In this document: one piece after another, positions 34,833 to 39,786 of the stretch
How positions within the stretch are numbered: the stretch's first letter is position 1
Layout of the letters: each line of letters begins with the position of its first letter
Origin: Nitrospirota bacterium
Lineage (GTDB): Bacteria; Nitrospirota; UBA9217
Direction of reading: 5' to 3'
DNA length: 64,000 nt
NCBI GenBank assembly: GCA_963751455.1
Contig: CAVVUN010000002.1
Coordinates: 32,001-96,000, forward strand
Notes under the pieces: generated by a model
Told to the model about the DNA's origin: nothing
What the model saw: only the letters and a program-made list of their open reading frames with translations
Databases searched by the model: none
Program-made: the position numbers and the translations under genes

Positions 34833-35249
34833 ATGAAAACCATTCTCGCCGTCGATGACAATGCCTTTATTCTCCAGATGATCTCTCTGTATTTCGCCGA
34901 ATGCGTGCCGGATTGTACTGTCCTTACTGCCGGCAACGGCAAACAGGCGCTTGAAATAATCCAGTCGGTTCCGGTCGACTTTATCATGACCGATCTGGAT
35001 ATGCCGGTCATGAACGGATATCAGCTTATAGAGGTCATAAAAAGAAAGATGCCGAGCATGCCGATTTTCGCGATGACGGGATATCGTTCCACTGAGGTTG
35101 CAGAAAGGGTTCGCATGCTTGGCGCAGCTGTTTGCTTGCAAAAACCATTCAATTTTGAGGACGTTCTTCAGAAGATATCGTCCGTTATGGAGGAGGCGCG
35201 TTCCAAACCTGCATTGACGATGCCTCCCCTGCAGCCGATTGCTTCCTGA
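34833..35249 (+). CDS. Single-domain response regulator
   Basis: ILAVDD, TDLDMPVMNG, MTG and QKPF. Confidence 0.9.
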   Translation: MKTILAVDDNAFILQMISLYFAECVPDCTVLTAGNGKQALEIIQSVPVDFIMTDLDMPVMNGYQLIEVIKRKMPSMPIFAMTGYRSTEVAERVRMLGAAVCLQKPFNFEDVLQKISSVMEEARSKPALTMPPLQPIAS

Positions 35250-35362
35250 GTCTTCCGCCTGTCGAAACTGTTACCGCTCGCCTTGGGTCCGTTTTCCGGC
35301 CTTCGGTTTCCCTTTGAAATTTTTGTTGTAATGACCCGCATTTTGGAATAAAGTGTAAAACC

Positions 35363-36397
35363 ATGTCGGATCAGGGTATTGAATATAAGGTACGAGTACT
35401 TGCGCTGGCAGGGCTCATGCTTTTTGTGTGGCTCGTTCTTGCCATGGTCTATACCGGACGGTTCTTCCCGCCATTTGAGCAGCTGGAGTTCCGACTAATG
35501 CCCTGGAAGGCGTCCATCCCTGTAGAGGCCGGTCTCGGAGAACGCCTTTCCATCATGCAGTCTCAGCTCGAAGCGTCAAACAGGGTTTCCCATTACGCCT
35601 TCATCACAATGATCGTCTGCTTCACTGCTTTCGTTATATACCTTTCCGTAGTGTACCAGCAAAAACAGAGACGGGTGCGCGAGAACATTTTCCTTGTGCT
35701 GAAGAACCAGGAAATAGCGCGGAGAAATGAATTCATTCGCTATATATCGGCTACGATAGGGCATGAATTCAAAAACAACCTCGGAAGGATAAAGCGCAGG
35801 ATTGATCTTCTTCCCACTCTGCCGGAAGACGCCAGAGAGCGCATCGATGATAACCTGGATAAGCTGTTCGCCGACATAGAAATATTTAAAAAAATCTCGG
35901 ACAAGCGCGAAGCGGGACTGGTCGAGTTTAAGAATATCGACATAACTTCGCTGCTTGGCGATGTTACGGCCCAGTACGGGGACCTTGCCGAAATAGTATT
36001 CGAGGACAATGCCTCGGTGCCGATGATCTACGCCGCGCAGCCGCTGCTCAGGACCGTATTCGAAAATTTAATCGACAACTCGATCAAGTATAAGAAACCC
36101 GGTGCGGCCCGTGCGCGGGTATCGATTTCCTGCGCAATGGACCGGGACGCCGGGAGGCAGTATGTCACGGTTTCGCTGCGCGACCAGGGAGTCGGGATGG
36201 ATGAGCAGCAAGCTGACATCTGCTTTTATAAAGGGAGGACTACGGGCGAGGGGTGGGGACAGGGACTCTATTATGCCAAATATGTTATAGGGCTCCACGC
36301 CGGGAAAATCAGGATCGGCAAGGAATATACGGCGCCCGGAATCGGGACGGAAATAATCCTGAAATTTCCATTCGTGCAGGAGACGCCGGATGTTTAA
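35363..36397 (+). CDS. Membrane sensor histidine kinase
   Basis: Two TM segments; H-box GHEFKNNL, N-box ENLIDNSIKY, G1 DQGVGM and G2 GWGQGLY. Confidence 0.88.
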   Translation: MSDQGIEYKVRVLALAGLMLFVWLVLAMVYTGRFFPPFEQLEFRLMPWKASIPVEAGLGERLSIMQSQLEASNRVSHYAFITMIVCFTAFVIYLSVVYQQKQRRVRENIFLVLKNQEIARRNEFIRYISATIGHEFKNNLGRIKRRIDLLPTLPEDARERIDDNLDKLFADIEIFKKISDKREAGLVEFKNIDITSLLGDVTAQYGDLAEIVFEDNASVPMIYAAQPLLRTVFENLIDNSIKYKKPGAARARVSISCAMDRDAGRQYVTVSLRDQGVGMDEQQADICFYKGRTTGEGWGQGLYYAKYVIGLHAGKIRIGKEYTAPGIGTEIILKFPFVQETPDV

Positions 36398-37280
36398 GGT
36401 GCTGATTGCCGACGACGACTTCGAGGACCGGGAACTGCTGAAGCTCGAGATCCAGCGTGCATTGAACGGGAAAGACGATGACCTCCGTTTTTCCGAGGCG
36501 GTAAGCGTCAAGGAAGCGTTCAAAATCCTGACAAGCGGTGTTTTCGACCTGATGACCCTCGACATAGAATTCGACCGGCTGAATGAAGGGATCGACGCCC
36601 TCCCCGAACTGTTTGAAACGCATCCGACCTTAAACATCATCGTCATCAGCGGCAAGCTTGACAAACACGAAGTGTCCGAACGACTCTTCCGTTTTACGAA
36701 GGACAATGTTTTGAAGGGCAAGCGGTGGGCCAGGCATTTCGACGTGCTGGACAAAAAAGACAACAAGACCGACGCTATCCGGCGCGCCTTCGACTTCGCG
36801 AACACGCAGAGGGAGGGCGTGGACGGAGTGCGCGAGCTCTTTCTTCTCGCCGAATCGTACCTTGAAAAGAACATGCTGGATAAATGCCTCGAAGTCTATC
36901 AGAAGATACAGCGCCTGGCGCCCGGTGAGATCGAGTCCGGGGAGAACATCGGCATCGTCAGGGGCGACGTATCGGCAGAGCAGGCCCTGGAATACTACCG
37001 GACCGGAGAAAAGGTAGTGGCTTCGCTTCTTCTCGGTTATTATCTGGAAAAGCGGCTGAAGTCGTTCACGGCAACGGTGCTCGGCCGGACCTTTCCGCTG
37101 CTTTCCGAAAACCTGAAAGAGATGGAGCAGACCGGAGCGATCAGCCCATTTAAAAAAGGCCTGTTCAGCGACCTGCTCGGACTCCGGAACAAGGCCATTC
37201 ATCATCCGACCGGGTTATCAGAAGGTGATTTTAAAACCGCCATTAAAAAAAGCGGTCTTCTGGAGGAAAACACTCCATGA
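36390..37280 (+). CDS. Response regulator: receiver + TPR-like helix pair + HEPN/DUF4145-like C-terminal domain
   Basis: VLIADDD, TLDIE, VISG; C-terminus ASLLLGYYLEKRL...LLGLRNKAIH (RxxxxH). Confidence 0.72.
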   Translation: MFKVLIADDDFEDRELLKLEIQRALNGKDDDLRFSEAVSVKEAFKILTSGVFDLMTLDIEFDRLNEGIDALPELFETHPTLNIIVISGKLDKHEVSERLFRFTKDNVLKGKRWARHFDVLDKKDNKTDAIRRAFDFANTQREGVDGVRELFLLAESYLEKNMLDKCLEVYQKIQRLAPGEIESGENIGIVRGDVSAEQALEYYRTGEKVVASLLLGYYLEKRLKSFTATVLGRTFPLLSENLKEMEQTGAISPFKKGLFSDLLGLRNKAIHHPTGLSEGDFKTAIKKSGLLEENTP

Positions 37281-37927
37281 ACGAGAGGTCAGTCTGGCAT
37301 TATCTTCCGCCGCCCGGTCCGCTCCTGAGTCTGCTGCTCATCGGCATGGTGCTCCTGAGCGGACTCCTTTATTACCGCGCGGTAAAGATCCAGCGGTTCC
37401 TCGAGCCGGCCCTTGCTCTCTCGCAGCCCCGGAACGAATTTACGAACAGCATCGGTAAGACCTTCGAAAAAGAGTTCGGCCCAAAAACACCCAGCGGCCT
37501 GAGGCTCAAATCAAGTTCGATCCTTGTGGAAAAATCGCTCCTGTATTCGGGAGGCCTCATACTGAACCTGTCGGCTCGGGACGAAATGCAGAAGCTTGCG
37601 CGTATTTTCCTGACGTTGATGAAAGACGAGAAAACGAGATCGGAAATCAGCCTCGTCCTGATCATCGCCCGTTTTCCTTCCTATGGCGGCGCAAGGGGCG
37701 GCCACAACATGGAGCGCATCGAAGCGCAGCGCATGATGGGGCTCATCCAGGACGCTCTCTTTCAAGAGCAGCCCGAACTCGGAGTGCGCTATCCTCATTA
37801 TTTTGCGGCTGTCGCTCAGGCCACGAGCCCGCACGAACCGAACAGGAACAGCGTCGAGTTCCGAATCGTTCCATCCGAATTTCTGCACATAGAGGTGCTT
37901 GAGAGGTTACAGAAGTACTCTTATTGA
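37277..37927 (+). CDS. Single-TM membrane protein with degenerate MotB/OmpA-like C-terminal domain
   Basis: N-terminal TM helix; SLLYSGGLILNLSARDEMQKLA..LVLIIARF..HNMER..PNRNSVEFRI follows the OmpA-C layout; ATGA overlap with upstream gene. Confidence 0.55.
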   Translation: MNERSVWHYLPPPGPLLSLLLIGMVLLSGLLYYRAVKIQRFLEPALALSQPRNEFTNSIGKTFEKEFGPKTPSGLRLKSSSILVEKSLLYSGGLILNLSARDEMQKLARIFLTLMKDEKTRSEISLVLIIARFPSYGGARGGHNMERIEAQRMMGLIQDALFQEQPELGVRYPHYFAAVAQATSPHEPNRNSVEFRIVPSEFLHIEVLERLQKYSY

Positions 37928-38196: not shown

Positions 38197-39786
38197 ATGA
38201 ATTTTAGCAATCAGCAAAAGCAGTGGAAAAGCTTAGCATGGCGGTTCTTGACAGTTTCAATGCTTCTCATCCTCACCATCCTCTTTGTAAGCGGCTGTTC
38301 AGATAATGATGATAACGGCACGCCGGCCACTTCGCTAGTGTCAATCAGTATCACTCCTTTAAACCCGAGCATTGTCGGCGGAACAAAAAAGTTTACGGCA
38401 ACGGGTACTTATTCCGACAACACCACACAGGACCTGAGCGCAACTGCCACATGGAGTTCCTCGAATACGAGCGTTGCGACGATCAGCAAGGGATTTGCCA
38501 CAGTGATCTCCGCCGGAACAACAACCATTACTGCGACCAGTGGATCTATTTCGAACGCGACAAGTCTTACGGTTACTGCGGAGAGCTCTGGTCTGACTTC
38601 TTTGATTACGACCACCGCCCTGCATGACATGATAGTAAGCGGGGTCGTAAATACTACAGGAACGAACCGTGTAGTGATCCTTGACATCACGACTGCGACA
38701 ACATATTCTGCAGGCCATATCTCCGGCGCACTTTATTGTAGCGGCACCGGAAGCATTATGGAGACACGTAAGGAAGGGCCGGCTAAAGATATTAATATGG
38801 TTCCAACCGGCGCCACGGTGGATGCGTTCATTCAGAAATATGGAATAGACGGGAACACTACCATTGTCTTGACGAGCGGCGATACCACCGAGGTTCAAGC
38901 TAAAGCGGCATCAGCAATGCTCAATGTGACAAGGACGTACTTCACATTGAGATACTGGGGCTTCCCCAAGGAAAAGCTCAAGGTCGTTGATGGACTTAAT
39001 TTTGCTTACAAAGCGTATCATTCTGGATATTGGATAACAGGCCCGACGTCGCCCACAGTTACACCATCCACCTATAGCGTAAAAAATAACGCTTCGCTTC
39101 GGACAGATCTCAGATCTTCGTTCAGTGATATGATCGCGGCGGCAGAAGCGGGCACTGACGCAATTATTGACATGAGAAGCGCATCCACGGCCGGATCGTA
39201 CGCAGGCGTAAAGGGCTCAACGGCAGGAGCGTTTAGCCCGGGTTCAGACTATACCGTTTTCGAGGGCCGTGTAAAGGGCGCACAAGCCATGGATTACAAG
39301 ACCGAACTTCTCGATTCATCTCTGCACTATCGTTTCCTGGCTAGCAATACGCTTGCCACTAAGTTTGGTAATTTAGGCTCGTCTTCCACAAAGCGCACCC
39401 ATGTTTACTGAAGGACCGGAGTGATCGCCAGTTCGGCGTTCTTCGTTCTTGATGGTATATTGGGTTGGCCGGTTTCGGATTATGATGGATCGTGGAGCCA
39501 GTGGGGACAGATGTCGAATTCAAGTGGAAACGGCGGGAAACTCACTTCCAATACGTGGGCCACAGACATGTCGACCCGCAGTGAAAATATAATTTACACT
39601 TTTCCCACCTTTTCAGTGGAACTGCTTACAGTCGATGGCACGGCCTGTTCAGGCAGCCTGCTTCCTGACGGCAATTCAACATACACTCCAACAGGCTGTG
39701 AGACTTCATATCCGCCCGACTCAACTTCGGCTTCAGGAAACCAGATCGAAGAAGAGGATGCAGCCTACTGTAACACAAAGCTGTGA
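38197..39786 (+). CDS. Probable selenocysteine-containing tandem rhodanese lipoprotein with Ig-like (Big_2) domain, ExtH-like, 529 aa
   Basis: Lipobox VSGC; Big_2 (ATWSSSNTSVATI); rhodanese GHISGA, YFTLRYWG; in-frame TGA at 39409 gives THVY-U-RTG followed by YDGSWSQWG. Confidence 0.85.
39412..39450 (+). promoter_or_regulatory. Putative bacterial SECIS hairpin
   Basis: Directly 3' of the TGA: agga/ttct, cgga/ttcg and ga/tc pairings; apical cgcc-agttc-ggcg with G in the loop. Confidence 0.7.

Follow-up and report, generated by a model that had tools for sequence, protein, structure and literature searches.

A conserved Nitrospirota operon encoding a histidine kinase, a response regulator with a predicted HEPN ribonuclease output, and a ZorB-like membrane protein

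Known outputs of response regulators are the binding of DNA or RNA, contacts with proteins, and small-molecule enzymes. We analyzed a three-gene operon, located in a 64,000-nucleotide (nt) stretch of a Nitrospirota genome (contig CAVVUN010000002.1; the window), that encodes a sensor kinase, a response regulator with a C-terminal domain predicted to be a HEPN ribonuclease (RNase), and a membrane protein, here called gene 3. Several described systems share parts of this arrangement. In Ire1 and RNase L, a membrane-linked kinase signal is coupled to a HEPN RNase with an R-x4-H site, the kinase being fused to a KEN-type HEPN RNase; Ire1 is a fused Ser/Thr kinase of eukaryotes (PMC3710099). Csm6/Csx1 (CARF-HEPN) and DS-11 (CBS-HEPN) resemble the regulator in having an N-terminal switch, a helical linker and a C-terminal HEPN domain (PMC13092281). 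PorX (receiver-helical bundle-PglZ) has a nucleic-acid-cleaving output related to a defence protein and phosphorylation-linked dimerization (PMC9757075), and membrane-associated DUF4145 HEPN proteins are predicted to carry out stimulus-dependent RNA degradation (PMC3710099). ZorB has the same layout as gene 3, a single membrane helix joined without a linker to an OmpA-C-like domain and a C-terminal helix, and has the peptidoglycan-binding residues N..L...R (PMC11946911).

The operon differs from each of these systems. Unlike Ire1, it has a bacterial His-Asp phosphorelay in which the kinase is separate and the RNase is fused to the receiver. Unlike in Csm6/Csx1 and DS-11, the switch is a phospho-receiver and not a nucleotide sensor, and there were no cas families, at the thresholds used, among 104 flanking open reading frames (ORFs). 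PorX is an orphan regulator whose PglZ domain is a metal phosphodiesterase of unrelated fold acting on short oligonucleotides (PMC9757075), and in the membrane-associated DUF4145 proteins the HEPN domain is joined to a membrane helix, with receivers only in HEPN's place (PMC3710099). Unlike ZorB, gene 3 lacks the membrane Asp and the N..LS..R motif and has the kinase and regulator as partners; unlike in Zorya, there is no ZorA, ZorC, ZorD or ZorE. The plug, Asp and MotA partner of a MotB stator are also missing. Unlike HEPN-MNT toxin-antitoxin modules, the operon has a kinase and a membrane protein as partners and no adjoining nucleotidyltransferase, and its flanks vary by locus. It is a two-component system with a predicted member of the HEPN group as output, and not a Zorya, stator, Csm6 or HEPN-MNT module.

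A literature search that left supplements and subscription papers outside its scope turned up no regulator that joins a receiver to HEPN and has its own kinase, and absence from print is not established. The combination was absent from passages of PMC3710099, PMC8195603, PMC11090510, PMC13092281, PMC5847659, PMC11946911, PMC11229360 and PMC12839542. The account of membrane-associated DUF4145 proteins in PMC3710099 has, in the passage cited, neither a receiver-HEPN fusion nor a cognate kinase; the Additional file of that paper could list such an architecture. The operon is real and conserved, and apparently undescribed.

The HEPN domain of the original description is supported as a prediction. 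HEPN domains are defined by R-x4-6-H, with a polar residue after the R, and an upstream Ex3[KR] (PMC3710099). The regulator translation contains the strings LLLGYYLEKRL and LLGLRNKAIH. E220, R266 and H271 were invariant in the closest homologues (120/120) and in genome loci (80/80), and were present in 71/71, 76/76 and 76/76, respectively, of the metagenome loci covering them; these three sets overlap. R266 and H271, whose conservation was to be surveyed, were therefore invariant in every homologue set that covered them. Among 81 distinct homologues, the domain had R266, H271 and E220 in 81, N267 in 80 and K or R at position 224 in 77. Nine of its 101 positions were invariant, a background against which the conservation of E220, R266 and H271 is more than chance; these three were the sole polar residues among the nine. 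Structure comparison, with models made for whole proteins, recovered a four-helix HEPN fold. Csm6 was the first Foldseek match of the whole regulator, LsoA was also among the fold matches, and AF0298 was the best structural match. By sequence, the window domain scored 15.4 bits against Pfam DUF4145 (gathering cut-off, 23.1), and 21 of 32 members matched this family with an E value of 0.1 or lower, the best being 3e-5. A sequence-profile search of the PDB gave no HEPN for the C-terminal domain, and an Atlas match to a DUF4145 cluster (0.83) was used as a lead only. Among the matches listed (120 of 328), the domain was found in no other longer proteins, only in this regulator family or fragments. 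We predict a HEPN fold with a complete and selectively conserved active site, and in our reading the output is probably an active RNase.

The rest of the regulator has the features of a phospho-receiver protein. In Pfam the window protein matched Response_reg (E 7e-9), TPR_2 (E 7e-4) and DUF4145 (E 0.1). Receiver residues D8, D58, S87 and K122 were present in all 81 distinct homologues, and D9 in 76. The most conserved stretch of the regulator was the extended alpha4-beta5 segment, with 19 of 37 positions invariant in these homologues (among them K109, K111, R112, W113, R115, H116 and F117). This segment is predicted to be an RNA-binding or dimer surface; amino acids (aa) 104-113 had a predicted local distance difference test score (pLDDT) below 50 in the monomer model. 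The TPR-like helices noticed earlier gave weak matches in nearly all members (TPR_2 in 47/48 and TPR_6 in 48/48, E up to 1), the window protein being under the gathering score. The earlier reading of the sequence had seen no helix-turn-helix (HTH) domain, and we rejected an HTH output: the single signal, HTH_60 (E 0.07, 3/32 members), was taken as noise.

The H, N and G boxes of the kinase are intact, as originally described. The protein matched Pfam HATPase_c (E 4e-15) and has conserved N (N235/N239), G1 (D274-G276-G278) and G2 (G299/G301) boxes; H134, N239, D274, G276, G278, G299 and G301 were invariant in 66/66 homologues. The possibility that its membrane region is a ZorA remnant was rejected, following comparison with a first set of 3 and a second set of 28 ZorA segments (probability 0.1% against the 28). 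The fixed adjacency of the two genes suggests phosphotransfer from kinase to regulator.

Gene 3 was modeled as a membrane helix, an OmpA-C-like domain and a C-terminal helix. ZorB chains occupied ranks 1-5 in Foldseek (E 1e-8 to 1e-5). Profile-profile comparison gave a probability of 82% against 30 ZorB proteins, 0.6% against 17 flagellar MotB proteins and 0.7% against 9 OmpA-family domains; these two control sets were smaller, one planned MotB subset contained no sequences, and ZorB subsets alone gave 9% and 0.7%. The N..LS..R motif was found in 0/66 gene-3 members, LS..R[AST] in 2/66 and a GH[TAS][DS]-type motif in 1/66, and D or E occurred anywhere in aa 10-35 in 2/66 (0/34 in another set), whereas the membrane DLM, GHT-type and N..LS..R-type patterns were each present in 30/30 ZorB controls. 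There was no Pfam match in the window protein, no MotB_plug or OmpA match in 34 gene-3 members, no MotB_plug in the window's own genome, and no OmpA or ZorB in a sequence-profile search of the PDB. The PADLOC ZorB profile (15/66 members) was unspecific, matching 398/401 phylum genomes, and was unused as evidence; Atlas matches to OmpA (0.89) and MotB (0.85) were leads only. Invariant residues were concentrated at the membrane edge, and the topology was ambiguous from hydrophobic-segment analysis. Fold searches and motif counts bear out the earlier description of a single-pass protein with an OmpA-C/MotB-type fold lacking the GHTD and LSxxRA residues, and we predict a motor-dead relative of ZorB, a protein that senses phage.

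The three genes occur together. There were 650 regulator homologues at E up to 0.001; in a set of 1.84 billion representatives the regulator made up a single cluster at 50% identity, along with fragments. Named homologues were from Nitrospirota; five of the 80 GTDB loci listed were titled 'bacterium' or 'Betaproteobacteria' by depositors, and the titles of the rest gave Nitrospirota groups. In 301 phylum genomes we found the regulator in 44 (E < 1e-30), gene 3 in 43 and the kinase in 42, all within the same 44 genomes. With the regulator as the starting point, gene 3 adjoined in 78/80 loci and the kinase in 76/80; the six exceptions were two wider gaps, three contig edges and one locus (L086) truly without gene 3. 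From the gene 3 side, in a test drawing on 80 metagenome loci, the regulator adjoined in 73/73, immediately upstream, and the kinase was in place in the 53/53 with enough upstream DNA; the sets for the two sides overlap and kin are not independent. Gene 3 is thus co-conserved with the kinase-regulator pair, and this, the HEPN fold and the R/H conservation, on which the original prediction depended, all held. At L086 (4364-6284), an intact kinase-regulator pair is followed by an unrelated ORF.

Across families, the regulator was about as conserved as GatB (0.651 versus 0.671, 144 pairs), and within a family it was less conserved (0.770 versus 0.854; rho 0.27, 52/2000 permutations), based on 30 genomes with both sequences of 41 searched. 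Regulator and GatB trees (FastTree, midpoint root, no topology test) both reproduced the division between families and a number of genus-level groups; two second copies fell outside their own family's clade. Flanking genes varied by locus and were largely housekeeping (104 ORFs, 19 loci), and five of the 104 matched PADLOC at 1e-25 (two SMC proteins, a subtilase, a DEAD helicase and an HmaC-like ATPase). No operon copies were found in plasmids or viral contigs, and a viral fold library search gave nothing at E up to 0.001. In the best explanation, the operon is kept vertically in Nitrospirota.

Some genomes have two or three divergent operon copies (L029 and L043 in G033; L006 and L040 in G164; L070, L093 and L094). 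One regulator copy in G242 (L133:1603-2492) has two frameshifts, and one in G197 (L134:1940-2557) matches aa 1-206 only with no gene 3 after it, another contig having the full regulator and gene 3; these two copies represent either decay or assembly error. Other lineages of the phylum carry ZorAB-like pairs (L165-L194). The window's own genome has one copy each of kinase, regulator and gene 3. Its assembly is gappy despite its completeness figure: DnaB matches were split across two contigs (C4:3-767, C14:62546-63139), and a search for PheT at 1e-30 came back empty.

ORF coordinates confirmed three overlapping genes on the plus strand (Table 1). The kinase and regulator overlap by 8 nt and the regulator and gene 3 by ATGA, which suggests translational coupling. 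The G+C content of the operon (0.52-0.54) is the same as that of the window.

Table 1. Positions of operon features in the window.
Feature	Position	Strand	Details
Predicted sigma70-type promoter	35326..35354	+	-35-like 35326-35331, 17-nt spacer, -10-like 35349-35354
Sensor kinase gene	35363..36397	+	344 aa
Kinase hydrophobic segments	~aa 10-31, ~aa 76-98	+	Flank ~45-aa predicted periplasmic loop
Kinase H box, H134	codon 35762-35764	+	After helical linker, before HATPase_c
Response regulator gene	36390..37280	+	296 aa
Receiver domain	36390..36809	+	aa 1-140; Pfam and receiver folds in structure search
Phospho-acceptor D58	36561-36563	+	Receiver, with D8, D9, S87, K122
Extended alpha4-beta5 receiver segment	36651..36761	+	aa 88-124
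TPR-like helical linker	36810..36974	+	aa 141-195
Predicted HEPN (DUF4145-like) domain	36975..37280	+	aa 196-296
Ex3K motif, E220	37047-37049	+	HEPN domain
R-N-x3-H motif, R266-H271	37185-37202	+	HEPN domain
Gene 3, ZorB/MotB-fold membrane protein	37277..37927	+	216 aa
Gene 3 hydrophobic segment	37316-37375	+	aa 14-33; single; one helix on to aa 67

The -10-like box ends 8 nt upstream of the kinase start codon, and there is no Shine-Dalgarno (SD) sequence before that start. Of 64 distinct upstream regions, 53 had a -10-like hexamer 4-8 nt ahead of the kinase start codon and 4 had an SD-like motif; the background for this hexamer placement was a mean of 8.25 and a maximum of 18 in 1000 shuffles, and 134 of 2160 long ORFs in the window's own genome. 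The window promoter scored under the threshold of a consensus scan. With the -10-like hexamer so near the start and SD-like motifs rare, the operon is likely transcribed from a promoter of its own as a leaderless mRNA.

A stand-alone receiver gene lies upstream (34833-35249, plus strand; Response_reg E 9e-24), in an adjacency not conserved in related loci. This gene, pepN and a downstream rhodanese gene were excluded as operon members because they are not conserved beside it. The downstream Ig-like/rhodanese gene (38197-39786, plus strand) has an in-frame TGA at 39409-39411, within HVY*RTG, after which the frame runs on to 39786 and carries a YDGSW rhodanese-type signature. The genome has two tRNA-SeC genes, and the hairpin after the TGA did not exceed shuffled sequences in stability (z 0.28). 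The gene likely encodes a selenocysteine rhodanese, with the TGA codon at what we take to be the active-site position.

We favor a model, held at a little short of an even chance, in which the kinase phosphorylates Asp58 and switches on the predicted HEPN endoribonuclease, with gene 3 as an envelope-sensing accessory, in a domesticated envelope-stress pathway. The intact chemistry of kinase and receiver and the fixed gene order suggest the phosphorylation step. By analogy with known receivers, PorX and Csm6, phosphorylation of D58 would dimerize the receiver so that two R-x4-H motifs meet. The invariant basic-aromatic insert may pick the RNA substrate or form the dimer face, and narrow cleavage (of a tRNA, an rRNA site or a set of mRNAs) could slow translation or reshape expression in envelope stress, with no killing. 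Presumably without proton conduction, and with no rotor, gene 3 may relay the envelope state to the kinase, via the conserved juxtamembrane stalk and C-terminal helix. A bolder version is more doubtful: a motor-dead ZorB would signal the envelope state to the histidine kinase and, through aspartate phosphorylation, to a substrate-specific HEPN RNase. A Zorya remnant would then serve in a bacterial counterpart of Ire1 signalling, and this would be the first class of response regulators with an endoribonuclease as output, its own leaderless mRNA possibly remaining translatable during the response.

The original prediction had allowed for a phosphorylation-gated RNase or a toxin tied to envelope sensing. 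The HEPN domain, phospho-Asp, linkage and ZorB-like gene 3 all speak for such a system. It could be anti-phage, with gene 3 detecting infection damage, the kinase replacing the ZorA rotor and tail, and the phosphorylated regulator acting as a toxic HEPN RNase, with dormancy or abortive infection as the outcome. The best structural and profile matches of gene 3 are ZorB, its helix joins the membrane segment without a linker, as in ZorB (PMC11946911), Csm6 and LsoA are among the regulator fold matches, presence is patchy across phylum genomes, and true ZorAB pairs exist in the phylum, where 5/5 upstream ORFs tested match ZorA profiles. The toxin or Zorya-like defence part is weakened by the lack of a ZorA/MotA partner and membrane Asp, the core-gene rate of evolution, the housekeeping neighbours and the failure to find a plasmid or viral copy; we rank this reading second, well under an even chance.

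The other alternatives each alter one component of the favored model. It is quite improbable that the HEPN fold is a non-catalytic, MtlR-like module that binds RNA or protein, making the regulator post-transcriptional and not an enzyme. Non-catalytic HEPN domains exist, AF0298 lacks the canonical His (PMC3710099), and conservation peaks in the receiver insert and not in the HEPN domain; however, inactive HEPN families typically lose catalytic residues (PMC3710099), and here these are the sole invariant polar residues. We give very little weight to gene 3 being no sensor, only a co-transcribed membrane anchor or regulated output, possibly with a cytoplasmic domain, beside a working pair of kinase and RNase regulator. 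This would fit L086, the missing peptidoglycan motifs and the ambiguous topology, but not the constant position of gene 3 beside the regulator wherever upstream DNA allowed the test, or the gathering of invariant residues at the membrane edge. Least probable of all is a CARF-like arrangement in which a nucleotide ligand, bound at the basic-aromatic insert, controls the receiver and phosphorylation plays a secondary part. The invariant K/R/W/H/F patch, the Csm6-like architecture and the proposal that the receiver of Cam2 is a cyclic-oligoadenylate sensor (PMC11229360) are consistent with it; that proposal, however, arose precisely because Cam2 has no kinase (PMC11229360), whereas here the canonical phosphorylation residues are all kept and an intact kinase always adjoins.

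If the favored model is true, a phosphorylation-gated endoribonuclease would provide a direct path by which envelope signals bring about RNA decay, a route foreseen only in general terms by Anantharaman et al. 2013, and a ZorB-type sensor would have been reused without its rotor. The parts are short and amenable to tests in E. coli and in vitro, and the 296-aa regulator would be a small switchable RNase that could be wired to a kinase.
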